The notes under the pieces were generated by a model. That model saw only the letters and a list, made by a program, of their open reading frames with translations, ran no database searches and was not told the origin of the DNA. A stretch of 64,000 nucleotides of DNA from the IMG/VR virus record IMGVR_UViG_3300042453_003986, positions 14,042 to 78,041 of that record, one strand, 5' to 3'. Within the stretch, counting starts at the first letter, position 1. The number at the start of each line of letters is the position of its first letter. The stretch is from a virus. Positions 2,115 to 63,933 of this stretch are shown here, one piece after another. The translations under genes and the position numbers were made by a program.

Positions 2115-2424
2115 GTAGCACCTGCATCGTTATACGAGTACCATCTACAAACACCAACGCCAACCCGTCGGCTACACCGACAATAGTAAAATCTTCCCGA
2201 ACTACGCAAAGCGGACAGTGGTCTTCGTACTCAAAAGCAATCACAGGCGGCGTGTACGCCTTTCCTGTATCCGCAGTCCGTTTCTTGGGCGGATACGGAA
2301 GCGCAGTCACTGACTGCGCCCGTACATCTACCAACTTGGCGGCAAAGCGGTACAGGTCTTTTACGTTAACCCGCACTTTCTGCCCTACGAGACCCGCATA
2401 CGGGGCCTTATCCACCTTCACCAT
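2098..2424 (-). CDS. Hypothetical protein
   Basis: 108-aa ORF overlapping both neighbours in the replication operon. Confidence 0.6.
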   Translation of the reverse strand: MVKVDKAPYAGLVGQKVRVNVKDLYRFAAKLVDVRAQSVTALPYPPKKRTADTGKAYTPPVIAFEYEDHCPLCVVREDFTIVGVADGLALVFVDGTRITMQVLHETDF

Positions 2425-5085: not shown

Positions 5086-5095
5086 GAATGCTCCT

Positions 5096-5142
5096 AAAAA
5101 AAAAAAAAGAAAGCAGCGGCAGGAAACTTCCTGCCGCTGCTT
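5096..5142 (-). terminator. Intrinsic terminator after SSB-like gene
   Basis: 15-bp inverted repeat AAGCAGCGGCAGGAA/TTCCTGCCGCTGCTT (5111-5142) followed on the minus strand by a long T tract. Confidence 0.8.
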
Positions 5143-5149
5143 CGCGGAC

Positions 5150-5962
5150 TTAGAACAGCTCGTCAGCGACTTCCGCCTTAGCGGGCGAGGCTTGGGGTGC
5201 CTCCAGTGCTTGCATGTTCGGAGCTAGTGGAATACGGTAATCCTTGACCACCGTATCGTACTCCTCACCGGCGAGCAAAGCCTTAACCGCTTGAACAGGC
5301 CACGGCTTGCAGTATGCAAACAAGTCGTATACCCGTGCGTACGCTTCGGGGTCCAACACCGTGCGATCAGCTGCGTGTACAGTGATAGTACGCTTCGTCA
5401 AGAGACCCTGACCAACAGTGCGGATTTGAAGGTCGACTGTAGACAACGGGATCAAAGCACCCGTCTCTTCGTCAAACGTCGTCCGCGACAAGTCGTCGAG
5501 ATCGTTAAACAAGCCACGGCCACCACGCTGGCTAACTGAACCCTTGAGCACGACCACTTCGTTGCGACGAGTAGGGCGCTCGGCAATCTCCTTGCCCTCT
5601 ACGACGTACTGGTTCATCGAGTTAGGGTAAATAACCCCGTTTTCCCGGCGCACTACCAGCGTTTTGTCGTACACGTTAATGAAAGCTTGCAGCTTCACAC
5701 CTTCAGCAATTTGAGGGGGAAGAAGACTGCGCGTCTGTTCGTCAACAAAAACAGGACGACGAATTTCCTTGTCATTGCGCTTGAAGGTCATCCACGCCTC
5801 CAGCACCACAGGACCCATCAACGGGAGCTGTGGATTTGCGGGATCAGGCAACAGACGAATGCGGCGGCTGCCCTCGCGCAAGTCCAGAAACGGCAGCGAG
5901 TTGTTCGTAGTAGCAGGCATTCCTTTGAGGTTCGCGGCTTGCTTCAGCATCTCATCAAACAT
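5150..5962 (-). CDS. Putative single-stranded DNA-binding protein
   Basis: IRLLP motif near the N-terminus, acidic-hydrophobic C-terminus (ADELF), and position upstream of primase/helicase. Confidence 0.55.
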   Translation of the reverse strand: MFDEMLKQAANLKGMPATTNNSLPFLDLREGSRRIRLLPDPANPQLPLMGPVVLEAWMTFKRNDKEIRRPVFVDEQTRSLLPPQIAEGVKLQAFINVYDKTLVVRRENGVIYPNSMNQYVVEGKEIAERPTRRNEVVVLKGSVSQRGGRGLFNDLDDLSRTTFDEETGALIPLSTVDLQIRTVGQGLLTKRTITVHAADRTVLDPEAYARVYDLFAYCKPWPVQAVKALLAGEEYDTVVKDYRIPLAPNMQALEAPQASPAKAEVADELF

Positions 5963-33800: not shown

Positions 33801-33983
33801 GAGAGTTACACGCTCTTGAAAATCTGATCCCAAACGCGCTGTCGGGTTTACTCGCTTAGCCTCAGCACCAAAATCTGCAGAAACACCAGACAGTGCGCTT
33901 TTAGCTTCCTCTGAATTTTTTTCAACAGCCGTAAGCAAGTTTACGATTTGCGTTAATTGACTAATTGTTTCTTCCATAATCAC
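18858..33983 (-). CDS. Giant tape-measure-like protein (5041 aa) with DEDDh exonuclease and thermonuclease domains
   Basis: Follows major tail and chaperone genes; helical and Ala/Gln-rich; TMP-like motif AFDPAQGMEGASIAIKEFLSGN..SLSRRF; embedded nuclease motifs. Confidence 0.85.
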   Translation of the reverse strand: MIMEETISQLTQIVNLLTAVEKNSEEAKSALSGVSADFGAEAKRVNPTARLGSDFQERVTLAVFALEQFVDDVRNNAITPADRADTLRTIQSMVQAVTRDLKTAASSMSEVTDTRRITERPTESTAPSSRRSRFYKETESTDAPAERPVPLIYSERPSNFSIDNSLFRRVFGFSPSLRNSSKDYETFAALLKDYLTTVPEAEQPSLYKAVATADLTVLKNAIKETFKEAPDEKDVQEQISALLKQIASTMLSSIGYALEGGGMTAPQLVGGTASAVVKLTENVGNRLRKILRQAVVNTKRLTAAGRTLPPQGVNQVEQTLKVGLEDILSDDGRATVYLSTDTDHTDEVNSAITQRFSSTFRAIESFVQNLNPRRRYRQEAQGIDTKVGSQITGFQSSAVFPTQFLLSAEAATTQLRKIVQEQIEKKDVVTVSVGGKAVQLPRALAEQFAPAVQATKRASTYSGVLGGGITGKSFTSMFGGAGGVQQVSNLYAAELINNYVQNGDVSADPEEFVAQLFGESSKDTEITPAQLFIQRLLEDLERQSVKLEREAVQAASGESRALLNHRAREVKNQIAFVRKITSSETSPQERAYLVTGVQSGEGISIDTALATLYGSHVFTPFPAAAPEIVDYAAGLLQNLQEQGLAGRERPYETQSSAVYLENALAGYTSEDGRTADPIAKIKGLGIEGFERARERTAGGQPYAALEFFSDYFGLGVQRGSAGGSLPAAQIASAYLDESGNFDVTRAREAYATNPQMTLNNLQTLFYAMTDVGRRDLPLLGIVKSLSSVPAKEVPFLLEEIAKVAPGIAQVLNSSRAREGLAAASKKDSTVERMRGILQAISPMLQAAYTQYASGVLGVGSPEEARKILESDTVAPEFLQLSKTYKMLSAEELNNPNNTFVQGLTYLASGASAAEMAESPLDFMAAILGTQDQLAEVRRQQEQAPLTIEELAQQRYPVAQAAGEQLRQAVGVFPERRTAQKQKRLLELRNLQDQLAVLRVNGATQASITYLEDQIKRTKLAIDDEERPMAPIERLRAQLSRDDLSSQQRAQLGTELAIREEAFNKYRFSDVGLDEGFGTDDFLARMRRKIEYQDAESAIPAELQQLHNRAFYETDSKEKEKLAEQIFKRAETLTEEERGKYDKFLELEKERRIRAAQYAQESSVFYGRASEGFEAQGALSFDPQAEMRDSYAVDDFVEEVIKGTPLARMVRSVEVSDQTYRRSAFDLDTLLFGDTSYSAAEASKAAQKQLAELPKDSSTSWEVQSAKEDILKLEAEINAYETEINEIETQAKKKKDQVNKAADEEISPVNEKIQSLKTQIAAIENREGQDTETDYDKFNVSMDLQPLKLELGQAEINAKSIEHERQYALGEIQRQHYTGLLKHSKKLAEEKRDDTKRSVSYPVVGIDYYKLPNEWVARVEGTEPKDIATALSQSFTGKEIPPELESAQTELAQLQEQVEAKLQERKSIAASAAPVRLEKIRRELADLREAARAGTVPADADYHAKISYLMQLEKEAEQEDPQVVNTALKTIDQQIESLKAQAAKIPRQAGDALVSRVAAERLRTSLFRRRQYLYSQLNINPKDSLLGLYRQRKETSSPQAARLLTRLITSSPLYQQLRFDLDYDDEKMNALFDTLLLKQDMAEQEAVGPTEADREFTTQALASYLQRARESDYALPENFDEAENRRALQMLQAKKSRGDSLTMQEQADYSQYRKYERNAQIRKAHQLVTNQPSAEPLVDFLKILYASLPQDYNLTGDKPEMIAKDVRIRNLLASIAELTDPASFQALAMIMNPRTSGRALDRAIASLPAADRAIINEAIAVLQEETNPGLALATSEIGKGMQEAQITDAVQIAAAEVAADKRRSGTSAASTSGRTAATKQKQDELDKAIKKRRDEEDAARKERRDRKEAAIREYRDREDAEIKKRRDEEDAARKERRDEREAALREYRDKEEPALKSQRDKEDAEIKERRDEEDAARKEKRDERKAALKEYRDREDAARKEKSKMKALALEVQASGEDIQTTWANPHYFAEYLKRFYIGEEIPPEVESALAELDQLDKQYDAASKIVGEVHLFGGTLEDYQKAQASKEEMNRTVSQAQKIQKQVGDALVSRLAAEEQQDESDAEIKERRDKNDELNKKKQDELDAAIKSQRDKEDAALKEQRDSEDAARKERRDEPDAARKERRDNIDELDKKKQDELDNVIKKQRDREDAARKERRDKNDELTKKKQDELDNVIKKQRDREDAARKERRDTIDAGIAAVIDVVGFDLETTIPKPGETAQILEFASVGGGKTATGAFATEVQSTMGSKEGPALSAKEIQKARSRLQRSAESGKTIVGHNIKEFDLPILFGGAENVPTIVQNQAVDTLQMANELQLPGSRTLGSLATLFGLEYDPTRLHEAAYDTDLNVRLYHELVKAQQEQKSNADQFSKNMLKRFFAQSQLTDEQKKLLQPLVTARRGYATDKVKQTSANLAYMLAHARRLDALKTASISGKGELQLFDSENRPITDQNYIKSVLAMFGHTLDTEISPEELRRMQDEAAKVTSMFDPYRVDGSLDTVYNLFNSVAGSVVGKGPAGVGASRYTTEAFSYLRSLVGAADMSLDPAALRSLLSRWGSFSAHGDMDKVTTPAAAGAAVLASALTDATAPTITARPSTERKPAEVSGVDITKATLTGERGAAAERVLRADELIGIAEEKATQSSEELKRQEQAVNDASAYVARVQKIKDWMTRRYAKYPSRLISINAKVAHGEDNLRKAEQTLKEMETVVTAATAEKEAAFAEKSEAVSALELITTKKEAYEEEKLAVSEPSVASVSDTPESSVTVVESTLDDKAVAEMAGEITSTRTRKPRASGKESRKKHESAESVGSGSSGSGSGGGGGAVSATISGGAEFSGPVTITNLDARNLEVASIEKATINATNVNLSLHSGASLGSIEVKQILTKEAVSSKSRSPLTIENYHAGSVARQNIQSAPGAVFGGGGFGGGGGGGYYGKNPALLARENELSVLRNNFQERRGQFAGLDDAAAQQQLKQQTSDFIKESLRLIQSDVLQTDKYTAGTAAEAPRVALKSAIDEMIDPANEAAVAANFGSRLEAIAGLVKQYVDTLDTSTLPEDVAKAAKSEIDGLNRTVQSAREQGYYTLTAVSKDQTSIDNAARNKAREDEAAAREAARVDEADKRKRDIVANESRKNAMLTAKGVLGSARTAFDLAGGELNGQTFAVGRAELIKTTVDALRDTTELDALSTVVSGLASAEPDNVREFTAALNQLNQAADDANLTEAATAFAKLTKVAADLQERVTASTTLTDAEKQSAMSALTLFTSRASQTDYIKPTAGVIEATERKRMSVLEEQLQAAAGRPGFFGLRRDSTQRRLLKEYAQERFGQAGADIMYNDRSMRFQARTENGGRIDLIEASAEDLKRLQEDLGNAGAPIGLEELQKLQNVMSRTQQTRNQTPFADPLFFAASRIRDIQTLGMTAMSALSLPSTIAGIIDQAASPALNAVRSMTSLRGLSRDQGVFNKAVAAASEQQALFGGSLTSNIGNITSFIPLTNAYGVDISQVVNVARKLAAFDPAQGMEGASIAIKEFLSGNVASLSRRFEINRSALSKIDIGNATEMLDKLDEVLAQMGVTDQLINEAANSRAAQYDKMLGRLETMGIKVSEFAVGVATPLLESILGPSSVLGEMADTSTINLMRDEGLKFTGSKALSKLADVDMYAPDLSTFTRQVDKVLQEANDEIALAAASYQKTTGVTPLVSPYRLLENMKPEERVQFRNMAQANRLFKGMTTEQALMQASRDMGGDYASYQEFVNQRKLLPTNRMSYEQMIKSDRFTELKADAEKAMIDEVARGAGGAFRPGILTALASPSTFLVGSLIASGVESASRSGASLKRATIGKVTDLDTFRTTSGERVRLVGIDAPETGSKAAIKAMSKAVEVGLRENENITYEAGGFDKYGRTLAVVYNEQGQMINSELIARGIAGAMTDNQAVNSFASFVADQGIGVVNEAAAKAGLGGLPVISDEVKRAYYMQTYFGGIGGTAGSVGTAVGGGMLTNATIGALAGSKMFAGSAAASAAAGAGIVGTAGLAALGAGVAAGGYALITRAIDLNDVSVEKMRQLYKMQTEFEKNQRMQNKFDSVYLANAGFSGNRETLINNELKKTRGRFIPNTKISEALAASGLTQAAYDEASTAIEKLYNQQDEQGKSILGTVVLSPDGTEMVSLTEALTQSLAFAQDANLRDTAVGKESQRLIGVGNELIDNADIIQLAQKYGLGITPSELGLNNNQLEALGLLESPAVLGRDYREAAQAAQGVSTQLTATQMARFLTSEQIKTYSDAMRQRLLNDPTYQVQAKEYMDQQFDQELQRKQQRFNTFAEQTALNNAMGLFGSAGPLSASQVMNSQFMRTSFADEGAKSALNDAVEESIKTFNAVSKHNKSMAELMGPYVSTFQTTFANYVAGFSRAGSAANTLRDYMSNGDPLFALNEMRRISGLDWRSMISQQMFLPQASSSAQLAQIPYYEMRRAFQPIDPRVARGADRLAGMQLPYTSGPRGRLAYANMIASNASITSLMNPAELMNVYSMGIQAQTELAQRNFQHNTQMRDLAINHNRSLEDITRNAFRQLEGIHLNATRQMVQAVQQRELSKRQSLAQNYSQLGSANMAESDRRKIDQVAQAGKKFADQAEQSNPAAFLRFQGRYSSESTALLEKAFTAYDRLPITDLAGRDAAWAQVIKYRDQVVSEMTELMKTADPETRANLQAQAALLGRDPERGAQAQQFADQQVATMIQRAESEKALRLRREDLLRQQRYSGLEYQGLVQNMQAAQQSGDPLQIQQAARALSDFNIQQQRLSEEIQQINRELQNMIDVAPLWSDFWTQGYVNIEETTSTTMSGLINQYEDFNIGLKQQIEDALINLARQKDDLVRSFTDAATEIATQVPATMAKGVAAIMQYTNDMTAVEGLISRGRFDEANNLASAANNRLALSLYGSTETPEAKTLKAQLSVNAREVPTAFDAYSVDTPEGKALRVYTVSTTSPAKPPKDRPFPMPSGQGILQ
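27230..28350 (-). repeat. 33-nt (11-aa) tandem charged repeats inside the giant protein
   Basis: Units such as DEEDAARKERR, DREDAEIKKRR and DERKAALKEYR; recurring nucleotide string tctcgtctttctttacgtgctgc. Confidence 0.9.
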
Positions 33984-42222: not shown

Positions 42223-42524
42223 ACTTAGTAAATGGGTCACAGCGCCCTGTACAGCGCTATACTGTAATCGGATGGGATGCGAACTCAGACGGATCGTTTT
42301 CTGTGGAGTTTGCCGTTACCAGTCCAAATCAAGAAGAGTACGAAGCGTATAGAATAAATATTCCGTTTCAGGGAGAAGATCCGGCGTTGTTTTTCGCCAA
42401 GCTCCGAAACTACATGGTTAGTCATGTAGCTTATTTAGACAGTCTTTCAGCCATTAAGCAGCAGTTGGGCGGGTTTACGTTTACCGACTGTATTATACAA
42501 GGAGTTTCCAATGTTTCTCAGTAG
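42219..42524 (+). CDS. Hypothetical protein
   Basis: ATGA-coupled to the MazG gene. Confidence 0.6.
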   Translation: MNLVNGSQRPVQRYTVIGWDANSDGSFSVEFAVTSPNQEEYEAYRINIPFQGEDPALFFAKLRNYMVSHVAYLDSLSAIKQQLGGFTFTDCIIQGVSNVSQ

Positions 42525-44625
42525 CTCATTTCTCGCCAAGTACGGCGACAACCCTCAGTGGCCAACTCTGCTGGGTCAGTTTGTATATCTCCGCACGTAT
42601 TCTCGATTTCTTCCAGAAGAAGGCCGCCGAGAAACGTGGAAGGAAACTGTTCGACGTGTGGTCGAGTACTCAATTGGTTTGGACAAACACAGCAGTCCCG
42701 ACCGTCTTACCGAAGAGGCTCGCTTACTTTTTGATTACATGTTTAACTTAAAGGTATTTCCTGCAGGGCGCACGTTGTGGACTGGAGGAACTGAAGCTGC
42801 TAAGCAGTACCCGATGTCCAACTTTAACTGCAGTTTTGTAGTGGTGGACAGCTTTACCGCGTTTTTCGATGCGTTCTATCTAATGATGCTGGGGACTGGC
42901 GTAGGTTTTCGTGTGCTTCCTGACGACGTAAAAAAGCTGCCAAAGATTGGCCGACTTGTGTATTCGGAAGTTCCGTACGTACCCGTTTCAAAAGCGGAGC
43001 GTGCTCAAGAGACGTCTGTGCGTGCCGTAGAGCCACACGTGTACGAAGTACACATTGGAGATACTAAGGAAGGCTGGGTTGAGGGACTTCGCGTGCTAAT
43101 GGAAAAAGCCGAAGTCGCTTACGAGGAGCGTGTTCCCGTTACTCTAGTGTTTAATTACAACAGCGTGCGTCCTGCTGGCGAGCCTTTGCGTGTCTTTGGC
43201 GGACGTGCTTCGGGACCTGAAGCTTTGCGCGATATGTACCGTCAAATTATTGCAGTAATCAACAGCGTTCCTGCAAAGCAGCACCGACTTCGCACCGTAG
43301 ACGCAATGGATATTATGAACTTGATCGGACAAGCGGTGGTAGTGGGCGGAGTTCGTCGTTCTAGCGAAATCACGTTGTTTTCTGTAGAGGATCAAAGTGT
43401 GTTGGAGGCAAAAACGGGTCTGTGGACCGATCCGGCAAAAGCCGACAAGCGCTATCGTGCAATGTCTAATAACTCGGTGTTTTTTACAGAAAAGCCATCG
43501 CGAAAAATCCTCGAGGATATTTTTGCCCGCATTATGGACAACGGAGAACCCGGATTTATCAACGCAGCCGCTGCATCAAAGCGCCGTAAGTGGTACGCTG
43601 GCACTAACCCGTGTGCAGAGATTTTGTTGGCCAACAACGGCGTGTGTAACCTTTCCGAAGTAAACGTTGCCGCTTTCGTAAACGAAGACAATCAATTTAA
43701 CACTCAAGAGTTTCTAGTCGCTGTTGCTCTTGCAACGCGGATCGGTGTCCGGATGGCTTCGGTTGACCTAGAACTTCCTCACTGGGATGCCGTGCAAAAA
43801 CGCGATCGACTGACTGGAGTTTCTTTGACTGGATACGTAGAAGCGATGAATCGCGTGGGCTTGTCCACCACTGAAGAAAGTGATGATTTATGCGACGTAG
43901 TGCTAGCGCAGGCACGTAAAGCTGCTCACGATGTCGCTAACAACTATTCGGCTCATCTAAAGATAACCGCTCCGCTGCTGACTACGTGTGTTAAGCCTTC
44001 TGGAACAATCGCACAGCTTCCAACAGTGAGCTCTGGTGCACACGCGTCATATGCTCCGTACTACATTCGCCGTGTACGCATTAGCAGCACAGACCCGCTG
44101 GCAAAGGCTATGCGAAGCCTTGGCTTTGTCACATATCCAGAAGCAACGTACGCGCTTCCGCATCAGTTTGAGGCGATGAGTTTGGAAGAGCGCACTGTGT
44201 TGATGCAAGAGGCAAAAACGTGGGTTATTGAGTTTCCGGTTAAAACGGCTGCACAACGCCCCGCTTCAGCAGAATCTGCACTTGAGCAGCTAAACCGTTA
44301 CTTTATTCTGCAGAAGCATTGGACTGATCACAATACTTCAATCACTGTGACAATCAAGCCAGAAGAGGTAGAGCAGGTAATTGACTTACTTCTTGAGCGC
44401 TGGGATGACTACATCGGTGTTTCGTTCTTACCCGCCTCGACTGGAGCGTATCCATTGATGCCGTACGAAGAAATTACGCAAGCGGAATACGAACGGCGCG
44501 CTGCTGGTATTGCAGACATCACAGGCGACGTGTTGACAGCACGTCTAGATATTTTTGAGTCTGGTGGAAATCCGGACGAGATTTTGGATTCTGATTGCGA
44601 AGGCGGCGCTTGTCCGATTCGCTGA
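42511..44625 (+). CDS. nrdJ: Class II (B12-dependent) ribonucleotide reductase, monomeric RTPR type
   Basis: YLRTYSR, GRTLW, FNC, GGVRRS, TNPCAEI, CNLSE, KPSGT, C-terminal CEGGACPIR. Confidence 0.95.
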   Translation: MFLSSSFLAKYGDNPQWPTLLGQFVYLRTYSRFLPEEGRRETWKETVRRVVEYSIGLDKHSSPDRLTEEARLLFDYMFNLKVFPAGRTLWTGGTEAAKQYPMSNFNCSFVVVDSFTAFFDAFYLMMLGTGVGFRVLPDDVKKLPKIGRLVYSEVPYVPVSKAERAQETSVRAVEPHVYEVHIGDTKEGWVEGLRVLMEKAEVAYEERVPVTLVFNYNSVRPAGEPLRVFGGRASGPEALRDMYRQIIAVINSVPAKQHRLRTVDAMDIMNLIGQAVVVGGVRRSSEITLFSVEDQSVLEAKTGLWTDPAKADKRYRAMSNNSVFFTEKPSRKILEDIFARIMDNGEPGFINAAAASKRRKWYAGTNPCAEILLANNGVCNLSEVNVAAFVNEDNQFNTQEFLVAVALATRIGVRMASVDLELPHWDAVQKRDRLTGVSLTGYVEAMNRVGLSTTEESDDLCDVVLAQARKAAHDVANNYSAHLKITAPLLTTCVKPSGTIAQLPTVSSGAHASYAPYYIRRVRISSTDPLAKAMRSLGFVTYPEATYALPHQFEAMSLEERTVLMQEAKTWVIEFPVKTAAQRPASAESALEQLNRYFILQKHWTDHNTSITVTIKPEEVEQVIDLLLERWDDYIGVSFLPASTGAYPLMPYEEITQAEYERRAAGIADITGDVLTARLDIFESGGNPDEILDSDCEGGACPIR

Positions 44626-44699: not shown

Positions 44700-45347
44700 A
44701 TGGCAAAAAGTCGTCGATTTCAGGAGATACTGGATAGTTACTCAGACAAGTATGACTTGGCTACGCTATCGTCTCCGAACGACCGAGCAAACCTTGAGAT
44801 GCTCATCAACAATCAAGTAATCGTTGAAAGTATTCAAGCAAAGCTTCAAGAGCTGACGGAAGACGATCCAGTGGAGAATATTGACATTATTCAGCGTTTA
44901 GGCTCGTCTCTTAAAGACATTATTGAGCGAAATTTGCAACTGGAGCGTGCACTTGCTCTTGATCGAAAGACTCGCAACACTAACACGTCTGAGTCGGTCG
45001 CGGAGTACCTTGTAAATTTAAAGCAGGTGGCTTTAGACTTTTTAGAGAAGCGCCTACTGCGCGTGTACTGCCCTGATTGTAAAATCATGGTTGCGCGTCT
45101 TTCGATTGTGCAAGAGCACAGCCCATTTTCACTTCGTGTCAAGTGCAGTCAATGTGAAAAAGATGTAATTATAGAGCGAGAAGAAAAAGACATCTTTTTT
45201 GACGTAGCCGACTCTGCGTGGAGAAGAAAGTACCAATACAAGGTTCAGAAGGCAAAGAAAACCGAATCTTCCATTGAAGAGGTTGAAGACGACCTGCTGC
45301 TTGTTGACCCTGAGGAGGACAGCGATGCTCATTCCGAAGCTCAGTGA
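44700..45347 (+). CDS. Putative terminase small subunit
   Basis: Directly upstream of and overlapping the large terminase; helical with CPDC..CSQC. Confidence 0.5.
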   Translation: MAKSRRFQEILDSYSDKYDLATLSSPNDRANLEMLINNQVIVESIQAKLQELTEDDPVENIDIIQRLGSSLKDIIERNLQLERALALDRKTRNTNTSESVAEYLVNLKQVALDFLEKRLLRVYCPDCKIMVARLSIVQEHSPFSLRVKCSQCEKDVIIEREEKDIFFDVADSAWRRKYQYKVQKAKKTESSIEEVEDDLLLVDPEEDSDAHSEAQ

Positions 45348-47922
45348 GGCCGAGTATGCTCTGTTAGAGGTGATTGAGGACCCTATCTGGCTAAACGAGT
45401 TTCTGCGGTCGACTAATTATGGTGACATGAACAAAAGTAATTGGCCGGCAGAGGAGTTTTCGTTTCGTCCGTATCAGCGTGAGCTGCTTACAGACCAATC
45501 GCCGCATATTGTAGTTACTGGGGGACGTGCTATTGGAAAGTGTCAGCCAGCACATGCACGCGTGTACACTACCGAAGGATACAAAACTATCACGCAGTTG
45601 AAGAAACAGCCGTCTTTTGTGACATACGGATACTCGGAAGAAACAAAGACATTTACTAAACGACGAGCGTACATTCGCAGGGACAAGTGGAAACGTTGTT
45701 TTCACATTAAGTCAGCGACAGCACGCGATCTTATCGTCACAGATGCTCACCCAGTCCTCACGCCTAAAGGGTACGTTATGGCTGGTCATCTGCGTGTCGG
45801 CGACCTCATTGCTACAATGAATCAGTTACCGACTGAGCACTGTCAAGACACAACGATGAAGTGGGCAGAAGCGCGAGCATTAGGTTACTTTTCTGTAAAC
45901 AGCTTATATGTCCGTTCTTCCGGAGGAATTAAGCCCAGATTTCGCAAGATTGAGGCGGAATTGCACGCAATTGCAGAAGATCTGTACTTGCAGGTAAGAA
46001 AGCTTGACGATGGCCGCGTATACTTAGATCGACTAAAAGCCAGCGGAGTAAAACATACCGTAACTCAGCTTCGGCTAGAGTTGGGTTTGCTTAAAGAAGA
46101 AGATCGTCGAGTAAACCGCCTTGACTGGTTAAAGACATACTCTTTACCGACAATCAAGGCATTTATTGAGGCTGCTTTTGCTCAGTACGGTAACTTGTCG
46201 TTAGACCGAGTATCTCTAAAAGTAACCAATCGGGCGTACGTAGAAGATTGGCGAGAAATTTTGCTATACTTCGGAGTTTCCACTACAATTACAAAATTAG
46301 CCGATCATACCGACGAACGTCATGACCTAGACATTGACGACAGCGTCTGGCTGCTGGAAACTGCTACAAAACGAGATGCTCGCGTGTTTTGGGGTCAGTT
46401 TACTCTGCCGGGTGTGGCTATTTCAGAAAAAGCAGCAGAGCCGATGGCCTCTGAATGGTTTCGATGGGAACCTATTACCGAAATCAGCATTACTAATCGA
46501 TTTAATTTGACCTACTCCATTCATGTGTACCAAGACGAAACGTACATTTCAGAAAACATCGTGGTGCATAACTCGGTCATTCTGGAAGACTTGTTGACGT
46601 ATCAGGTGTTAAATTCAAATATTGAATTTCCAAAAACACCTGAACAACTACTCGTTACGCCAAATACTTCGCAGATGACCCCATTACTGGATCGACTAGT
46701 GTTGAAGTTTACTACTTCTCCGATGCTAAAAGATTTTCTTAAAAATCAAATTAACCGATCAAAAGGAACGCTTGACTTTAGTATGGGAGCGCGACAGCAT
46801 CGTTTGTACGCACGTATTGCCGGTAGCAAAGAGGCAAACAACCTTGTAGGTCTGCACATTCCTAAGGTATGCGGAGATGAGTTCCAGCTTTTTTCTATGT
46901 CTGCGTTTAACCAGCTGCAGCCTACTATCAACACTTGGGAAAGCAAAGTACAGGAGGTATATTTCGGAGTACCAAACGGTATGCGAAATATGGCGATTTA
47001 CGTGCTAGACATGAAGATGGCCAAGTTTAAAAAGTACCGCATTCCTGCACCCAATAACCCGTACTTCACTCGCGATGACTGGAATGACGCGCTGGCAAAA
47101 TTTGGTGGAGAAGACAGCGACACCTTCCAACAACTAATTCTTGGCCGTCACGGCTCTCCTTCGTTTCAGCTACTTTCTCGCGATCAGATGAAAACGGTCC
47201 CGATTGACTTCTACCGGTATCGATACGCGCAAGCCGACAAAGAATCGGGTAAATCGTATCGAGATGCTCTTCCGGTCATTAAGCTTCCTCCTCACTTAGA
47301 TGTCGTATTCTCGATTGACACCGGATTTTCTGATCCAACAATTATCCAAGTACTTATCCGTACCGAGACTTACTGGGTATGCGTACGGCGATACCGTATT
47401 CAGCGCATCGACTATCCAGAGCAAGAACAGATTATTGACTACCTTGTAAAAGCGTATCTTCCCTCACTCGTGGCAGTAGACGTAGGTGCTGGAGGCGGTG
47501 GTGCAGGAATTATCCAAAGTTTGAAAACAAGGCCTGAGTATGCTGCGATGAACTACGCAAAGCGAATTCTCCCTGTGCAGTTTAATGAAAAAGTGGTGCT
47601 GGGTGCTGCGGACGAAATTGAAGTCAGTGAATCATTTAAATCGTGGGGCACTGGCGAGCTTGTCAAGAATATCTATAGCGGTAATTTAGTATTTTCTGAA
47701 GTAGACGCGGAAGGCATCTCGCAGCTTGAACGCTTGGCTCGTCAACGACGTACTAGCGGAGCAATGCACTACTTTATTACTTCGCCCCGAGGCTTTGGAG
47801 AGACAGCCGATGATCACATTTACGCAAGCTACTTATGTTTTATTGCCGCTCTTCGTGAGCCAAAGCAAGCGGCCTTAGTTCCGTCCTTGGCAAGGGCGAC
47901 CAGTCAATTTACACAGAGGTAA
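45325..47922 (+). CDS. Terminase large subunit with intein
   Basis: RPYQ, Walker A GGRAIGK|S split by the intein, GDE Walker B, GVPNG, SIDTGFSDPT nuclease, DDH. Confidence 0.9.
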   Translation: MLIPKLSEAEYALLEVIEDPIWLNEFLRSTNYGDMNKSNWPAEEFSFRPYQRELLTDQSPHIVVTGGRAIGKCQPAHARVYTTEGYKTITQLKKQPSFVTYGYSEETKTFTKRRAYIRRDKWKRCFHIKSATARDLIVTDAHPVLTPKGYVMAGHLRVGDLIATMNQLPTEHCQDTTMKWAEARALGYFSVNSLYVRSSGGIKPRFRKIEAELHAIAEDLYLQVRKLDDGRVYLDRLKASGVKHTVTQLRLELGLLKEEDRRVNRLDWLKTYSLPTIKAFIEAAFAQYGNLSLDRVSLKVTNRAYVEDWREILLYFGVSTTITKLADHTDERHDLDIDDSVWLLETATKRDARVFWGQFTLPGVAISEKAAEPMASEWFRWEPITEISITNRFNLTYSIHVYQDETYISENIVVHNSVILEDLLTYQVLNSNIEFPKTPEQLLVTPNTSQMTPLLDRLVLKFTTSPMLKDFLKNQINRSKGTLDFSMGARQHRLYARIAGSKEANNLVGLHIPKVCGDEFQLFSMSAFNQLQPTINTWESKVQEVYFGVPNGMRNMAIYVLDMKMAKFKKYRIPAPNNPYFTRDDWNDALAKFGGEDSDTFQQLILGRHGSPSFQLLSRDQMKTVPIDFYRYRYAQADKESGKSYRDALPVIKLPPHLDVVFSIDTGFSDPTIIQVLIRTETYWVCVRRYRIQRIDYPEQEQIIDYLVKAYLPSLVAVDVGAGGGGAGIIQSLKTRPEYAAMNYAKRILPVQFNEKVVLGAADEIEVSESFKSWGTGELVKNIYSGNLVFSEVDAEGISQLERLARQRRTSGAMHYFITSPRGFGETADDHIYASYLCFIAALREPKQAALVPSLARATSQFTQR
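45541..46572 (+). mobile_element. Intein (344 aa) in the terminase Walker A motif
   Basis: Starts CQPAHARV, block B VTDAHPVLT, ends YISENIVVHN followed by Ser; central LAGLIDADG-like remnants. Confidence 0.9.
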
Positions 47923-57450: not shown

Positions 57451-57560
57451 CAGCGAAACACGTCTCACTCAGTGCGATTGAGTGAGACGTGTCTACGGTT
57501 GTTGCTCATAAGAGTAACGTAAAATTGATCCGTACTGATGAGCTGTTTCAGTATTCTTAC
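57451..57560 (+). ncRNA. Type II hammerhead ribozyme, copy 1
   Basis: CAGC-GAAA, 14-bp stem III, GTC site (cut after 57493), stem I TACGG/CCGTA, CTGATGA, GCTG; loop I TAAGAGTA pairs with 3' tail TATTCTTA. Confidence 0.92.
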
Positions 57561-57575: not shown

Positions 57576-58016
57576 ATGTTGAAGTTGCTTAAGCTTGTGT
57601 TTGTATTCATCGTCCGCGCAATCATCGTCGCCGCAGCAGTCGCAGCGGCTGTCGGCACCATCGTCGAGCTTTCGCTCGGTGAGGGTGTTGGCTACTTGGT
57701 AGCTATTGTCCTCGGCGTCGTTATGCTAATCACGCCTGCTGTTGAGGCAGTCGTGCGGTCAACACAGCTCATCAAGGCGGGTAACCGCTTCGAGGCGGCT
57801 GTCGCAGCCTTCATGGCTGCGCAAAGCGAGTACGCCGAGCGCAAGGCGTTGGCTGAGGTCCGCGCTGAGTGGAAAGCAGTCCACGGGGTCCTCTGGGAAG
57901 TTGAAAAGTGGTACGGCTGTTCAGCAGCTGCAAAGCGGATGACCGCCGACGTCCAGTCACGCGTATTCGCTTGCGAGCGCGCACACGAGAACAGCCGGCA
58001 CGGCAACAACTGGTAG
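57576..58016 (+). CDS. Two-TM membrane protein, paralogue A
   Basis: AAGGAG RBS; two hydrophobic helices; LWEVEKWYGC. Confidence 0.7.
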   Translation: MLKLLKLVFVFIVRAIIVAAAVAAAVGTIVELSLGEGVGYLVAIVLGVVMLITPAVEAVVRSTQLIKAGNRFEAAVAAFMAAQSEYAERKALAEVRAEWKAVHGVLWEVEKWYGCSAAAKRMTADVQSRVFACERAHENSRHGNNW

Positions 58017-58025
58017 TTGTTGCCC

Positions 58026-58057
58026 CTGCAACGCTCACCTGCAGATATGGATGTGAG
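58026..58057 (+). ncRNA. Pseudoknot motif B, copy 1
   Basis: CTGCA-acg-CTCAC-c-TGCAG-atatggat-GTGAG. Confidence 0.6.
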
Positions 58058-58116
58058 AAGTATTGTCTGCGGACTACACAGTGTAGATCCGCTTAGCTCT
58101 TGAAAGGAGCACGGCT

Positions 58117-58475: not shown

Positions 58476-58961
58476 ATGTCTACACTGTTCAAGATGATGT
58501 TCGTGTTCGTCACGATGGCGTTGCGTGCCATGGCGATCGCCATGGCGATCGCCATTCCGTTCGGGGTCGGCTACGAGTGGTGGTTAGGCCACGGCAGCGG
58601 ATACTTGATGGCTGCGGCCATCGTGGTCCTTCTGCCAACATTCGCTTTCCTCCACGGCCTCTGGGTCGTGGGGAGCCTGATCCTCGCGAGCAAGCGCCTT
58701 CAGGAGGAGTTCAACATCCTCCGCGACATGCTTGCGGAAGGCGCCGGTTGGAGTCTGCGGGAGCAGCTCCGCGACGTTGTCGACGCCCGAAACGCCGTCT
58801 TCCAGAATCTCTGGGAGATGGAGAAGTGGTGGCTTTGCGATGTGATCGCGCGCGACATGATGTCGCGCATCGATCGCGAACGCCGCACCCTCGAATACGC
58901 CGTAGAGCGTAACATCGAGGCGGCACAGGCACGTCGCAACTCCAGCGATTTCCGCTGGTAG
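58476..58961 (+). CDS. Two-TM membrane protein, paralogue B
   Basis: Same RBS context as paralogue A; LWEMEKWWLC. Confidence 0.7.
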   Translation: MSTLFKMMFVFVTMALRAMAIAMAIAIPFGVGYEWWLGHGSGYLMAAAIVVLLPTFAFLHGLWVVGSLILASKRLQEEFNILRDMLAEGAGWSLREQLRDVVDARNAVFQNLWEMEKWWLCDVIARDMMSRIDRERRTLEYAVERNIEAAQARRNSSDFRW

Positions 58962-58970
58962 TTGTTGCCC

Positions 58971-59002
58971 CTGCAACGCTCACCTGCAGATATGGATGTG
59001 AG
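58971..59002 (+). ncRNA. Pseudoknot motif B, copy 2
   Basis: Identical to copy 1. Confidence 0.6.
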
Positions 59003-59031: not shown

Positions 59032-59217
59032 GTGAACACCATGTACGATCCCGACAAGGACGAGGTCATCGAGGAAGAGATGGCAGAGTTTTCAGCTCTT
59101 GAGCAGGTCGCAGCTGAGCTGCGCGCGCAAGGGCTGGGCTGGGAATGTCCCTACTGCTGCAGCGACGTCGCTGCAGCGATGGAGGCATGCCGCGAGTGCG
59201 GCTATCCCAGCCTCTAG
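59032..59217 (+). CDS. Small acidic Zn-ribbon protein
   Basis: GAAAGGAGG RBS; CPYC..CREC. Confidence 0.65.
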   Translation: MNTMYDPDKDEVIEEEMAEFSALEQVAAELRAQGLGWECPYCCSDVAAAMEACRECGYPSL

Positions 59218-59225
59218 CTGTCCGC

Positions 59226-59255
59226 CTGCAACGCTCACCTGCAGTAGGATGTGAG
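59226..59255 (+). ncRNA. Pseudoknot motif B, copy 3
   Basis: Same stems, shorter linker (taggat). Confidence 0.6.
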
Positions 59256-59909: not shown

Positions 59910-60038
59910 GCAGCCGGAGTAATGGGCGTGTACTCCGTTAACAAAACTCTGCCCACCATTGCAGACGTGATGCACCTGCGACAATGATCTTGCATCCTGG
60001 CCTACGGGCCAGCGAACGACGAGAAAGGAGGACGTCCT

Positions 60039-60578: not shown

Positions 60579-60800
60579 ATGTCTAATGAACATTACGTGC
60601 TTAGCGCACGTAGCCCAGAGTGGCTGGTCGCACAAATTCGCCGCGCAGGTCTCTGGGCACGTGTTGGCGAGGACTATGGGACGGTGATCGTCCCGGCCGA
60701 CCGGAAACGCCTCGCCGAAATCTGGAGAGCGCTGGGCGGCGGCCCTAGTTACCGCCCGTGGGAAATGCTGAGCGAAATCGACGGCAACTTCGCAGAGTAG
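60579..60800 (+). CDS. Hypothetical protein
   Basis: ATG 2 nt after the previous stop. Confidence 0.55.
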   Translation: MSNEHYVLSARSPEWLVAQIRRAGLWARVGEDYGTVIVPADRKRLAEIWRALGGGPSYRPWEMLSEIDGNFAE

Positions 60801-60806
60801 CTCAGC

Positions 60807-60838
60807 CCGCAAGGCTCACCTGCGGATATGGATGTGAG
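60807..60838 (+). ncRNA. Pseudoknot motif B, copy 4
   Basis: CCGCA/TGCGG (compensatory change) plus CTCAC/GTGAG. Confidence 0.6.
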
Positions 60839-60871
60839 AGTATTAGACGCGCAGAAAGAAAGGAATCTAAC

Positions 60872-61642
60872 ATGCGCACAATTTCAGCTGGGATGGGCTT
60901 CGGCCTGTCCATCCAAAACGGCCAGTTGGTTGGCCACAACATCAGCGTGGGGCGCTTCGCCTGCGACCACGTCGCGGCAGGTGCCGTGGGCGTCGCTGTC
61001 AACTCGGCTACGGCTGAGCTGACGGCGTTTGTCCGCCGCCCCAGCGAACAGCTCGGGGCGTTGGTAAGCAGGTTCACCGACGAAGTGTGCAAGCTCAACT
61101 TGTACATTATTACCGACGTAGCGGTCTCTGACCGCGCGATCGGTCTCATTGGGCAAGACGCTTACGGATACCGCTTGGTCGTGGTAGGCTACGCGGGCCT
61201 ACCGCATCAGTCGGCTGTCAGCGACCTTATAGTCGACGACGGTCGGCTGTTCCAGCCAGACCCGTCAACGACAGGGTGGCTACTTGCCGTCAAGTCGCCG
61301 CTGCGCTGGCAGGTCACTAACGTCGCTCCGGCGTTGACAGTCACCAACGAGTGGCTGTACTCTCCTGAGGGGGAAAAAGCGCCGTTTAGCCACTACAGTC
61401 CCGACACCGGGCTGGAGTGGACGCACTCCGAGTACCACGGGGAGTGCGTAGCGGCATACGCTGACTACGTAGCCACCCTGAACGGCGGCGTGGTCTACCC
61501 CTCAGCCAACTTGGGCAATCAGTACCAAGTGCGGTACATGCCCACATGGAGGGGCTGGAAAGACTTGGCCTTCGGTCATCAGTGCGGCATCGGCCGTGCT
61601 GAGGACGGTTCTGTGCACTTCTGGGGTACGCAGCCCCAGTAA
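60872..61642 (+). CDS. Hypothetical protein
   Basis: GAAAGGA RBS; 256 aa. Confidence 0.65.
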   Translation: MRTISAGMGFGLSIQNGQLVGHNISVGRFACDHVAAGAVGVAVNSATAELTAFVRRPSEQLGALVSRFTDEVCKLNLYIITDVAVSDRAIGLIGQDAYGYRLVVVGYAGLPHQSAVSDLIVDDGRLFQPDPSTTGWLLAVKSPLRWQVTNVAPALTVTNEWLYSPEGEKAPFSHYSPDTGLEWTHSEYHGECVAAYADYVATLNGGVVYPSANLGNQYQVRYMPTWRGWKDLAFGHQCGIGRAEDGSVHFWGTQPQ

Positions 61643-61647
61643 GTGCA

Positions 61648-61683
61648 CCGTGGAGTCGAGTAACCACGTTAAAATACTTTCAG
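61648..61683 (+). repeat. Intergenic motif D, copy 1 (36-nt exact repeat with 63037-63072)
   Basis: CCGTGGAGTCGAGTAACCACGTTAAAATACTTTCAG; CGTGG/CCACG stem. Confidence 0.75.
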
Positions 61684-61706
61684 TGTTATTAGTATGGAGG
61701 TGCGTT

Positions 61707-61808
61707 ATGTTGATCAACAAGTTGATGAAGGCAGGGTTTAAGCCCCGCCGGTCGACAGTGAACCGCTGGCTCGCTCCCGTGCGGAAGTTCCGCCGGGTAG
61801 TATGGTAA
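61707..61808 (+). CDS. Small basic peptide (33 aa)
   Basis: GGAGG RBS; MLINKLMKAGFKPRR... Confidence 0.5.
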   Translation: MLINKLMKAGFKPRRSTVNRWLAPVRKFRRVVW

Positions 61809-61818
61809 GGAGAAAACT

Positions 61819-62238
61819 GTGGAAAACATCATCATGCAGGCGGGCGACGAGGTCCGCGTGTACTGGAACAGCCGGAAACGGGTGTTTTCAGTACAAGTTC
61901 GCGACACCCAGAACCGCTGGGTCGTCGCCGGCTACACGAATAGCCTTGTGCTGACCGACGTCACCTTTACGGTGAGCAAGGCCGGGTTGGCCCGTGCTCG
62001 TCGCGAAGGTGTCAAGAATGTCCACGCCTATGTGCGTGGGACCGTGCCCGCTGATGATCTGTTCACGCGCTGGGGCGTGGACAACTGCACGGCCAGCGTG
62101 TACTACAGTTACCACGTCGGTAGCTTCCACACCCGCGCAGGTGTCCATATCGACGACGCACGGTACGCCGTGTTAGCCGTCGAAGACGCCCGCCCCGTCA
62201 TCCGCGTGGCCCCGGTCACTGAGGTGGCCGAGGTCTAG
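61819..62238 (+). CDS. Conserved phage hypothetical protein
   Basis: VRVY.N....FSV...L.DV.F.VS.AG..R..REG.KNVHA.V.G, recognised as a common phage family of unknown function. Confidence 0.65.
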   Translation: MENIIMQAGDEVRVYWNSRKRVFSVQVRDTQNRWVVAGYTNSLVLTDVTFTVSKAGLARARREGVKNVHAYVRGTVPADDLFTRWGVDNCTASVYYSYHVGSFHTRAGVHIDDARYAVLAVEDARPVIRVAPVTEVAEV

Positions 62239-62243
62239 TTCAT

Positions 62244-62270
62244 CCGGAGCAGGTAACCGGTCAACCTTGC
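62244..62270 (+). ncRNA. Pseudoknot motif C, copy 1
   Basis: CCGG-aGCAGGTaa-CCGG-tca-ACCTTGC. Confidence 0.55.
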
Positions 62271-62295
62271 GCTTTAGTAACAGTAGGAGTGTGCC

Positions 62296-62772
62296 ATGGA
62301 AATCAAGCTCACTTACCAAGTCACCGACACTCACGGCAATGCCGTCGAATTGGAGGTGCAGCAGTTGCTGCTGGCGGTTCCTTCCCAGAAGGAGCTGTTG
62401 GAATGGTGCTGGTCCGTTGTCCGCAACCAGCGTTGGGAGTTCGTCTCCCAATGGATACTGGAAGTTGACAAGGAGGTCGTGGACATCCCCGAGTGGGGGT
62501 TGAAATTCGTGCATACGTCCGTCACCAATGGCTTTGCCATCGAAGACGGTGGAGTCGAGGAGTCAGTCTTTTGGCTTACTAAGCCGTTCGTCTCCTTTAC
62601 GGCCGAGGAGCTGAGCAGTATTGAAAGGGAGTGGTCCCATCGAGATGATAACTGCGTGTACAAAGCACCCGGGATGCACTCGGGCGGCGTCCTCATGGAC
62701 GGCTTGCCCACCGGGGCGCCAGTAATCGAGTTGTCGGTTTACGTCCGCGACGTTTTGCCGTACAGCCGCTAG
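62296..62772 (+). CDS. Hypothetical protein
   Basis: AGGAG RBS; acidic, 158 aa. Confidence 0.65.
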   Translation: MEIKLTYQVTDTHGNAVELEVQQLLLAVPSQKELLEWCWSVVRNQRWEFVSQWILEVDKEVVDIPEWGLKFVHTSVTNGFAIEDGGVEESVFWLTKPFVSFTAEELSSIEREWSHRDDNCVYKAPGMHSGGVLMDGLPTGAPVIELSVYVRDVLPYSR

Positions 62773-62777
62773 TTTGT

Positions 62778-62804
62778 CTGGAGCAGGTAACCAGTTAACC
62801 TTGC
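62778..62804 (+). ncRNA. Pseudoknot motif C, copy 2
   Basis: CTGG-aGCAGGTaa-CCAG-tta-ACCTTGC. Confidence 0.55.
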
Positions 62805-62826
62805 GCTTTAGTACAAGAGGTGCATT

Positions 62827-63030
62827 ATGTGGCAACTTCTCTACGCAAACGCGCTTCTCGCTGTGTACATGCAGGACACCGCTAAGGTGCCTGCGTATCG
62901 GGTGGTGTTTAAGGGCGAGCAGAAGGTGTTCCGGGGGCCGAACGCTCGCTGGGACGCCGCCGCCTACATCCGTGAGCTGGACTGGGATACGTGGGCATCC
63001 ATGATTTCCCACGAGATTGACTGGGAGTAG
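62827..63030 (+). CDS. Hypothetical protein
   Basis: GAGGTG RBS; 67 aa. Confidence 0.6.
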   Translation: MWQLLYANALLAVYMQDTAKVPAYRVVFKGEQKVFRGPNARWDAAAYIRELDWDTWASMISHEIDWE

Positions 63031-63036
63031 TACTCC

Positions 63037-63072
63037 CCGTGGAGTCGAGTAACCACGTTAAAATACTTTCAG
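63037..63072 (+). repeat. Intergenic motif D, copy 2
   Basis: Exact copy of 61648-61683. Confidence 0.75.
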
Positions 63073-63093
63073 CTCTACTGTATGGAGGTTGTT

Positions 63094-63510
63094 ATGGAAT
63101 GGACACGAGGCGAGTGGGCAAACCGCGGCTACGTAGATAGCCGCCCCCGGCCGTTCGACGCCCCCGACATCCGGGCTACGGAGCAGCTGCTCCGCAACAT
63201 CAACCCGCAGACTCCGATCGACCCCGAAGGAGCGGTCGGATACTGGGAAGTTCCCAACTTCACTTACCGGCCTATTTGGGCACACGTCACCGTAGTGACA
63301 CCCCGTCGCTATGCGACATGGGAGGTAATGATGGTTCCGGTACGGGATCTCAAGTGGCAAGGCGACCCGAACGTCGAGCGCGCTATTGAGCGTCTCTGGC
63401 CCCGGGCTACGAGGACCGTTGTTTGGTGGCGTGGGTTTTTCGGGAACCGCACGCCGACCACTGTCGACTACGTCAAGCGGTTGCTCCACTACCGCAACGT
63501 CGTAGAGTAG
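63094..63510 (+). CDS. Hypothetical Trp-rich protein
   Basis: GGAGG RBS. Confidence 0.65.
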   Translation: MEWTRGEWANRGYVDSRPRPFDAPDIRATEQLLRNINPQTPIDPEGAVGYWEVPNFTYRPIWAHVTVVTPRRYATWEVMMVPVRDLKWQGDPNVERAIERLWPRATRTVVWWRGFFGNRTPTTVDYVKRLLHYRNVVE

Positions 63511-63515
63511 CTGTA

Positions 63516-63542
63516 ACGGAGCTGGTAACCGTATAACCTAGC
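63516..63542 (+). ncRNA. Pseudoknot motif C, copy 3
   Basis: ACGG-aGCTGGTaa-CCGT-ata-ACCTAGC; compensatory changes in both stems. Confidence 0.55.
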
Positions 63543-63564
63543 AGTGTAGTAAGAGGAGATTGTT

Positions 63565-63933
63565 ATGGGTTACAAAGTTATTGTGGTTTCGCGAAGTAAG
63601 GAAGTGTTCTCGGCGTTCACGCTGGACGTGTACCCGGTAGCTTCTCACGAGGAGGCTATTAAGCTGGTTGAAGATGCAGACCACAGTCTGCGCCAATCGT
63701 ACGCGTGGGTCCCCGGAGGGGATTGGTTCTACGCCGCGAACATCCTAGCCTTTGAGGTCACTCCTCGGGGCGACTGCGAGTTTGGGTTGCGGTATTTCTG
63801 TTTAACCGATGAAGAGGTCGCTAAGGAGTGTGCAGCGCGCAAAATGGACGTAGCTAAGTGTATGGAAACCCGCGCGGCTATACGCGCTAAGCCCGCGGAA
63901 CCGTACGCGTTTATTGCTCGGTTCAAGAACTAG
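63565..63933 (+). CDS. Hypothetical protein
   Basis: GAGGAG RBS; 122 aa. Confidence 0.65.
   Translation: MGYKVIVVSRSKEVFSAFTLDVYPVASHEEAIKLVEDADHSLRQSYAWVPGGDWFYAANILAFEVTPRGDCEFGLRYFCLTDEEVAKECAARKMDVAKCMETRAAIRAKPAEPYAFIARFKN

Follow-up and report, generated by a model that had tools for sequence, protein, structure and literature searches.

The 64,000-nt stretch analysed here (the window) covers bases 14042–78041 of a complete 78,041-bp virus record (IMGVR_UViG_3300042453_003986, below G000). Towards its end two short elements recur in the spacers between small genes, motif C in three copies and motif D in two, which an initial annotation had taken for pseudoknots. Motif C is a 27-nt H-type pseudoknot with two covarying helices. 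Together C and D form part of one larger family of such compact knots, which is confined to the coding strand and anchored to the stop codon of the preceding gene. As to function, we tentatively favour the possibility that the knot is a cis-acting barrier in RNA (a roadblock or insulator) that sets off the cistrons of a polycistronic early message from one another.

Fold and covariation of motifs C and D

The letters and coordinates originally given for the C and D copies proved right. Motif C consists of a 4-bp stem 1 (S1), a single A (loop 1, L1), a 5-bp stem 2 (S2), UAA (L2), the 3′ strand of S1 (S1′), a 5-nt loop (L3) and the 3′ strand of S2 (S2′). The window copies are arranged as follows:

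62236–62243, plus strand: stop codon TAG (62236–62238) and 5-nt spacer TTCAT upstream of C1
62244–62270, plus strand: pseudoknot C1, CCGG A GCAGG TAA CCGG TCAAC CTTGC
62244–62247 with 62257–62260: S1 of C1, with L1 = A at 62248
62249–62253 with 62266–62270: S2 of C1
62254–62256 and 62261–62265: loops L2 (TAA) and L3 (TCAAC) of C1
62770–62777, plus strand: stop codon TAG and 5-nt spacer TTTGT upstream of C2
62778–62804, plus strand: pseudoknot C2, in the same register as C1, S1 CTGG/CCAG
63508–63515, plus strand: stop codon TAG and 5-nt spacer CTGTA upstream of C3
63516–63542, plus strand: pseudoknot C3, S1 ACGG/CCGT, S2 GCTGG/CTAGC

The exact C core occurs three times in the window, where the sole further match needs two mismatches. 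Three more C copies lie elsewhere in G000 (genome positions 921, 1453 and 5570) and two in a relative, G004, which makes eight in total. C3 matches the copy at genome position 921, flanks included.

These eight copies align without gaps (alignment A1). All 72 pair cells form standard pairs, and two-sided changes are seen in five of the nine: for the outer pair of S1 the variants are C-G, A-U, U-A and G-U, for the second C-G and U-A, and three S2 pairs vary on both sides too. None of 500 shuffled alignments matched the observed pairing or covariation score, and in slid controls pairing fell to 21–46%, with one pair only changing on both sides. C1 and C2 have counterparts in G004 whose flanking proteins are 44–52% identical and whose knots differ by compensatory changes; for example, in the orthologue of C2 (G004 6112) the S2 ends GC../..GC have become AT../..AT. 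Over the orthologous sites in general, the flanking proteins of G000 and G004 share 44–62% identity, and the motif is retained with compensatory changes. Other motif copies adjoin unrelated genes, and the element is independent of the identity of the genes flanking it. With both stems covarying across the eight copies, C is a real pseudoknot, as had been proposed. Its stem 2 had been described as 6 bp with a bulged T. It can be drawn in this way or as a continuous 5-bp helix with one G-U pair; a degenerate copy in another relative (G001 20892) favours the bulged-T version.

Motif D has a longer hairpin loop:

61640–61648, plus strand: stop codon TAA (61640–61642) and 6-nt spacer GTGCAC upstream of D1
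61649–61679, plus strand: element D1
61649–61653 (CGTGG) with 61664–61668 (CCACG): S1 of D1, shared and covarying in the family alignment
61654–61663: loop of D1, 10 nt, AGTCGAGTAA
61669–61674: A-rich linker TTAAAA of D1
61658–61662 (GAGTA) with 61675–61679 (TACTT): candidate stem 2 of D1
63028–63037, plus strand: stop codon TAG (63028–63030) and 7-nt spacer TACTCCC upstream of D2
63038–63068, plus strand: element D2, identical to D1

D1 and D2 are identical over 36 nt (61648–61683 = 63037–63072), and the exact D 30-mer occurs twice against 0 expected by chance. The D hairpin (S1) is solid. Stem 2 stays a weak candidate: GAGTA/TACTT, suggested earlier as a possible second helix, pairs in the two identical G000 copies and is lost in the sole further D variant (G004 4205), no one register giving at least 4 bp in both. 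All five elements had been said to start 5–6 nt after a stop codon, which is correct for the C copies (5, 5 and 5 nt) and D1 (6 nt), whereas D2 starts after 7 nt. Of the 11 spacers checked, that of D2 (63028–63096) is the only one in which the upstream frame is open throughout and leads in frame into the ATG of the next gene; read-through of the TAG at D2 would fuse products of 67 and 138 amino acids.

Beyond these five elements we gathered 40 copies from four related uncultured aquatic phages, the carriers of this type of gene array: G000, G001 (80 kb, portal 85% identical), G003 (83 kb) and G004 (41 kb). A further contig, G002, is a fragment near-identical to G003. The family form is S1 of 4–6 bp, A, S2 of 5–9 bp ending in GG, NAA, S1′, a loop ending in AAC, and S2′, and each genome holds 8–17 copies. 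The 39 copies that were aligned (D2 was omitted as identical to D1) were put through MAFFT, which is blind to structure (alignment A2). Here AA-C, that is, the end of L2 and the first base of S1′, is invariant, as is A-C at the end of L3; the L1 A and one T are conserved in at least 90%. Scored over the four pairs of S1 and the four pairs of S2 nearest the junction, 91% of the cells are paired compared with 68.6 ± 1.8% in shuffles, with 64 double-change cells compared with 18.6; slid controls are 35–55% paired. Circular reasoning is made less likely because two further controls agree. With the S2 register set by two sequence anchors alone, 33–36 of 36 are paired at positions 1–4, with at most six pair types per position, and S1′ finds an upstream complement averaging 4.1 bp in its own sequence but 2.0 bp when S1′ is swapped between copies. 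S1 occurs in eleven different pair combinations. The initial annotation had named a lack of covariation in a wider alignment as grounds for refutation; both helices covary across the 39 copies.

The kinship of C and D, likewise suggested at the outset, is upheld by intermediates. In two G003 copies (57796 and 58421) the hairpin is that of D (CGTGG/CCACG), the loop is UUAAAAAC, and S2 is clean and covaries (GTAAGC/GCTTAC versus GTCAAC/GTTGAC); G004 4716 combines D's GAGTAA loop end with a 9-bp S2. The family is larger than C and D and takes in elements that had been filed apart at genome 1–5.6 kb: outside the window, genome positions 1–5,600 hold at least 11 more family knots after stop codons, namely three C copies and eight longer forms with loops such as GGCAA-CAGT-AACTT or TGAAA-CGT-ACTT. 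One looser relative lies within the window:

59915–59955, plus strand, 5 nt after TAG: looser relative, S1 CGGAGT/ACTCCG, S2 TGGGCG/TGCCCA, L3 TTAACAAAACTC

It is followed by a further hairpin, and a homologous copy is found at G004 1750 (S1 CGAGG/CCTCG). The 5′ strands of S2 are often Shine-Dalgarno-like (GGAGG) and form tandem G-U pairs with UUUCC (e.g. L188 7221–7255, L179 12191–12226), in effect a sequestered helix of the Shine-Dalgarno:anti-Shine-Dalgarno kind within the knot.

The demonstrated extent is that of a clade-level family in four aquatic phages. In IMG/VR the exact C-core pattern gave 67 single matches, about the number expected by chance, with G004 (L066) as the only true relative. 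A strict family descriptor found one match in 1.88 Mb of unrelated phage loci compared with 17 in the reversed-sequence control, so that a wide spread of the exact family consensus is not shown; a loose UUAAAC descriptor was not enriched either (384 matches, 411 in the control). Folding of the spacers without pseudoknots was unremarkable (z −1.25 to +1.39).

Setting in the early-gene array

G000 has 73-bp terminal repeats and 49% G+C, and lake, estuary and marine metagenomes contain DNA contigs that match it. Cultured phages gave no match to the region (megablast) or to the portal protein (tblastn), and a portal search of GTDB genomes yielded no relative. A block of plus-strand genes runs from genome position ~55.9 kb across the record end to ~6.5 kb. 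Its last ~13 kb (window position ~57,000 to the end, plus genome 1–6,400) form an array of small genes with 57.5% G+C, compared with 47–49% elsewhere in the genome, and TAG is the stop of almost every gene in it. The remaining plus-strand genes of G000 mainly end in TGA and TAA.

The array spacers measure ~55–130 nt and have the structured element first, and a strong AGGAGG-type ribosome-binding site and ATG last. Motifs C and D occupy five of them. A unit thus reads stop codon (nearly always UAG), 5–7 nt, pseudoknot, A/U-rich linker, strong Shine-Dalgarno sequence, AUG. All 40 collected copies lie on the coding strand, as do all 19 strict-descriptor matches in related loci (19/19 on the plus strand). 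Twenty-one copies have 5 nt between the stop codon and S1 and nine have 6 nt, and the stop is UAG in 34 of 39, with TGA once only. The distance from the knot to the Shine-Dalgarno sequence ranges from 4 to 87 nt, and the element is anchored to the upstream stop codon. Pyrimidines predominate in the 5-nt spacer (consensus U-Y-C-A-C), and three genomes have TAGTCCAC in common.

No sigma-70-like promoter or intrinsic terminator was detected at any copy, and there is no excess of either in the stretch. An intrinsic terminator was rejected as an identity of the element, none of the copies having a G+C-rich hairpin with a U tract, and no T run follows the knot. In G001 the first gene behind an internal promoter (TTGACG-17-TATAAT) is without a knot in its leader, and the last gene of the array is followed by a classical terminator, not a knot; the knots are therefore internal punctuation.

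The slot behind the stop codon is also filled by other structured elements. Motif A (window 57451–57551), which starts directly at a stop codon, aligns end to end with the Rfam model Hammerhead_II (25.6 bits, E 0.0015). Its core (CGAAAC, GUC, CUGAUGAG) is intact, and its score stays below the gathering score of 37 because of long inserts in stems III and I. With a second hammerhead-II-like copy ~900 nt downstream, in the spacer behind the stop at 58348, this type of element occupies the slot twice in the array. For hammerheads that cluster between the genes of prophages, a role in cleaving long transcripts into mRNAs of single-gene length has been put forward (PMC3088659).

Motif B is a separate pseudoknot family (CTGCA ACG CTCAC C TGCAG ..GGAT GTGAG) with window copies at

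58,014–58,060
58,959–59,000
59,215–59,255
60,800–60,840

Its S1 covaries (CCGCA/TGCGG in G000; TAGCA/TGCTA and CCTCA/TGAGG in relatives). It is kept in all four phages, and the relatives were found through its pattern. Unrelated IMG/VR contigs carry a minimal Watson-Crick knot, TCGAG CTCC CTCGA TTAAAC GGAG, 1 nt after a TGA (L003 247–270; also L007, L008, L016, L024, L059 and L064).

The phage encodes a TROVE/DUF2828 protein; DUF2828 proteins are widespread, and the 80 loci carrying them were without any of the motifs. For a small protein encoded nearby, a search found no relatives. Elsewhere in the window, a 5041-aa protein with SNase and DEDDh exonuclease domains is encoded on the minus strand (18858–33983), and the phage also encodes an 865-aa protein with a weak intein match under the Pfam cut-off and a class II ribonucleotide reductase, the coordinates listed for the latter two being window 45325–47922 and 42511–44625. 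Contigs of related populations (runs X3 and X9) join or break at spacer borders within window 61,700–63,570 (61700>63517, 61702>63090, 63567>62236). This could reflect a reshuffling of cassettes between repeated knots, or paralogous copies and assembly ambiguity. Among the 41 best-supported variant positions of the matching DNA contigs (249 more exist beyond these), none lies within a knot core, and no conclusion is drawn from this.

Comparison with described RNAs

The region, narrower cuts and relatives were searched with 4227 Rfam models, among them PreQ1, pistol, twister, hatchet and hammerhead, and no family reached its gathering score for C or D. The best alignment for D1 was with the DUF805 RNA (RF03081, labelled cis-regulatory), at 24.1 bits compared with a gathering score of 51.1. 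The DUF805 consensus hairpin GUGG AGaCCAGAaA CCAC followed by UuaAAAA agrees with D at 19 of 25 positions; D2 and the C copies were not matched. A pattern fitting both D and the DUF805 consensus gave 14 matches, none of them with a matching stem. In the literature we found no description of such knots in phages.

The closest described element is coremin (exoribonuclease-resistant RNA C, xrRNA-C) of beny-, cucumo-, hypo- and other eukaryotic RNA viruses. Coremin consists of a 3–5-bp hairpin (hp1) with a loop xG...AD, a spacer UUAAACUAC and a pseudoknot between loop and spacer (PMC6546385, PMC10321173). Within the spacer, A15–A17, C18U19 and A20C21 are essential (PMC6546385), and the loop consensus is YGAD or YGNNAD, that is, a pyrimidine first, G second and A-D last (PMC10520033). 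In a variant, xrRNA-WCC, the loop-spacer pseudoknot is made of Watson-Crick pairs, and a second hairpin after the spacer (hp2) is required for Xrn1 resistance (PMC6546385, PMC10520033, PMC10321173). The minimal TCGAG...GGAG knot of the unrelated contigs described above has the WCC design at its simplest. Coremin brings Xrn1 and scanning ribosomes to a halt and promotes −1 frameshifting.

The phage knots resemble coremin in several respects. They, too, are compact H-type knots formed by a short hairpin whose loop pairs past an A-rich spacer, and both kinds of element occur in intergenic regions and near stop codons. The phage S1, which covaries, has the length of hp1 (C, 4 bp; D, 5 bp); loop position 2 is mostly G and the loop ends in AA. 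The spacer is UUAAA(C)U-like to a varying degree, with S1′-UUAAACUU in G001 copies and UUAAAAUAC in D compared with UUAAACUAC in coremin; D agrees at eight of nine positions, whereas C has only UCAAC-CU. D is the closest copy, as its loop ends in CGAGUAA, and a CGAGUAA heptaloop in Rosellinia necatrix hypovirus 2 is Xrn1-resistant (PMC10520033). In contrast to coremin, however, the phage loops contain a true Watson-Crick S2 of 5–9 bp, an extra NAA linker precedes S1′, and the setting is the mRNA of a DNA phage and not a eukaryotic RNA virus. By the published definition C and D fall outside coremin, since both the pyrimidine at loop position 1 and hp2 are wanting, but the design is alike.

Possible functions

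The reading that we tentatively put forward is that of a roadblock or insulator between the cistrons of the early message. Located 5–6 nt beyond the codon in the A site, a structure is at the opening of the ribosomal mRNA channel, and a terminating ribosome need not unwind a knot at this distance. The knot would sit just outside the footprint of the terminating ribosome and so would remain folded on a translated message. Folded, it could form a mechanical barrier, a roadblock or insulator, to machinery that advances in the 5′-to-3′ direction; candidates are an exonuclease of the RNase J type, RNase E that scans from a cut upstream, and trailing ribosomes. Decay or interference begun in one cistron would end at the gene boundary, and the downstream cistron would be left as a separately stable, translatable unit. 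The hammerhead-like elements may reach the same end by self-cleavage. A shared role in message punctuation is supported because a hammerhead-like element occupies the same slot and such a role was proposed for clustered hammerheads (PMC3088659). A flaviviral xrRNA blocks bacterial RNase J1 in vitro, too (PMC5760640). A more specific version, which we consider doubtful, is that tailed phages carry a protein-free "xrRNA" of coremin-like design, 27–40 nt long and fixed 5–7 nt behind UAG, which would halt trailing ribosomes as well as bacterial 5′–3′ RNA decay by RNase J or scanning RNase E; in concert with the hammerheads it might constitute an all-RNA system that makes separately stable messages from a polycistronic early transcript.

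Several points weigh against a roadblock. The knots are known here from DNA sequence, and a block to an exonuclease would presuppose a host that has a 5′–3′ exonuclease. The comparison with coremin is strained in three respects: loop position 1 is A in at least 90% of the aligned copies but C or U in coremin, the loops measure 9–17 nt compared with 4–8 nt, and folding of the five C and D spacers revealed no shared downstream hairpin corresponding to hp2 (a hairpin behind the knot is present in some G001 and G003 relatives). The tight anchoring to the stop codon would fit a role in 3′-end protection of the upstream message or in termination equally well. Nor does the roadblock model account for the strong UAG preference.

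Among the alternatives, the least unlikely is a recognition site for a trans-acting protein, be it an RNA-binding regulator shutting the early genes off together or an endoribonuclease cutting beside the knot (Cas6-like or RNase III-like processing). Such a site would agree with the conservation of unpaired bases (L1 A, L2 AA, L3 AC) while the stems vary, with 8–17 copies per genome, and with a phage that invests in RNA biology (TROVE/DUF2828 protein, hammerhead-like element). However, the slot after the stop codon also holds differing structures (the hammerhead-like element, motif B, looser pseudoknots), and a generic structural role fits better than one operator because several different structures share the slot. 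Moreover, no candidate binding protein was identified, and the Shine-Dalgarno sequence and the start codon both lie clear of the knot.

It is rather improbable that the knot is a translational insulator or enhancer of the downstream gene, which would lock away sequences able to pair with the ribosome-binding site, or give the 30S subunit a platform, so that cistrons start independently. In the compact copies a strong Shine-Dalgarno sequence follows 9–14 nt after the knot, with an A/U-rich linker in between. The S2 3′ strands (ACCUUGC, UUUCC) resemble an anti-Shine-Dalgarno sequence, GGAGG is common in the S2 5′ strands, and in a nested fold of the C1 spacer the S2 3′ strand pairs with the real Shine-Dalgarno sequence. 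Yet it is the distance to the upstream stop that is conserved, whereas that to the Shine-Dalgarno sequence varies over 4–87 nt, and in many copies further hairpins intervene between the knot and the Shine-Dalgarno sequence.

A new small self-cleaving ribozyme is very improbable. We know of no natural self-cleaving class as small as 27 nt, and C, with about eight conserved unpaired bases, is only 27 nt long. No Rfam ribozyme family matches C or D, even at E up to 10, so that the catalytic core considered in the initial annotation gains no support from Rfam or from the very small size. The clustered prophage hammerheads (Perreault et al. 2011, PMC3088659) are similar in being structured RNAs repeated between small phage genes, but C and D have half their size and no ribozyme core. 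What speaks for a ribozyme is the intergenic slot shared with the hammerhead-like element, as pistol, hatchet and twister-sister ribozymes were found through such association (PMC4604425).

There is equally scant likelihood that the element acts solely as DNA, be it as promoter of the phage, as hairpin promoter in single-stranded DNA or as recombination linker for shuffling cassettes. Near-identical copies occur (D1 and D2 over 36 nt; C3 and the genome-921 copy with flanks), and repeats that recombine would agree with the contig joints and loose ends seen at spacer borders in related populations, but the joints may stem from paralogous copies or assembly ambiguity, and recombination may be a by-product of the repeats and not their function. 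Compensatory change in two interleaved helices is unexpected for a site in duplex DNA, and all copies lie on the coding strand; the motifs are not a double-stranded DNA promoter, the alternative named in the initial annotation. A T7-type RNA polymerase (PF00940) was not matched in the complete genome, a weak negative, since the control search also found nothing. Covariation alone cannot tell RNA from single-stranded DNA; the strand restriction and the position between stop codon and ribosome-binding site point to RNA.

The chance that the knot is a ligand-sensing, riboswitch-like aptamer is very slim. In preQ1-I, also a small knot of the H type, P2 and P1 are joined by a loop and the 3′ loop is rich in A, and the phage knots recall this architecture in being H-type with a multi-nucleotide L2 and an A-rich L3. 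This likeness was not borne out: neither PreQ1 (RF00522) nor any other riboswitch model in Rfam matched the region, the narrow cuts or the relatives. The Shine-Dalgarno sequence lies outside the phage knot, there is no expression platform, and many copies per genome stand before unrelated genes.

A recoding signal for UAG read-through or frameshifting at the gene end is hardly credible and was rejected. H-type pseudoknots of this kind are those of the luteoviral (beet western yellows virus) type and murine leukemia virus gag-pol. They share with the phage elements a compact knot, an A-rich loop and a position 5–8 nt behind the decoded codon, at which the knot encounters the entry channel of the ribosome (PMC10321173). 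A structure 5–9 nt past the decoded codon is a feature of recoding stimulators, and the phage knots follow the stop at 4–7 nt in 34 of 39 copies, typically with the 5–7-nt spacing of that geometry; the strong preference for UAG and the stimulation of −1 frameshifting by coremin point in the same direction. However, none of the 11 stops checked is preceded by a slippery heptamer X XXY YYZ, and the codon is an ordinary gene-ending stop without an extended frame. In most C copies the UAA of L2 is in frame 18 nt after the TAG, and the absence of a slippery site together with this stop inside the knot largely refutes recoding for C. The downstream genes have their own Shine-Dalgarno sequence and AUG in varying frames, D2 alone being open in frame to the next gene.

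If the knots are directional roadblocks, they would be the first RNAs of a bacterial virus described as stopping exonucleases or ribosomes and, at 27 nt, among the smallest known. The near-exclusive UAG before the knot raises the question of a link to termination dependent on release factor 1 (RF1). If the reading is true, it would provide a concrete function for the structured RNAs that accompany ribozymes in the intergenic regions of phages, an association noted in 2011 and still unexplained, and would yield a very compact part with which the genes of synthetic operons could be insulated.

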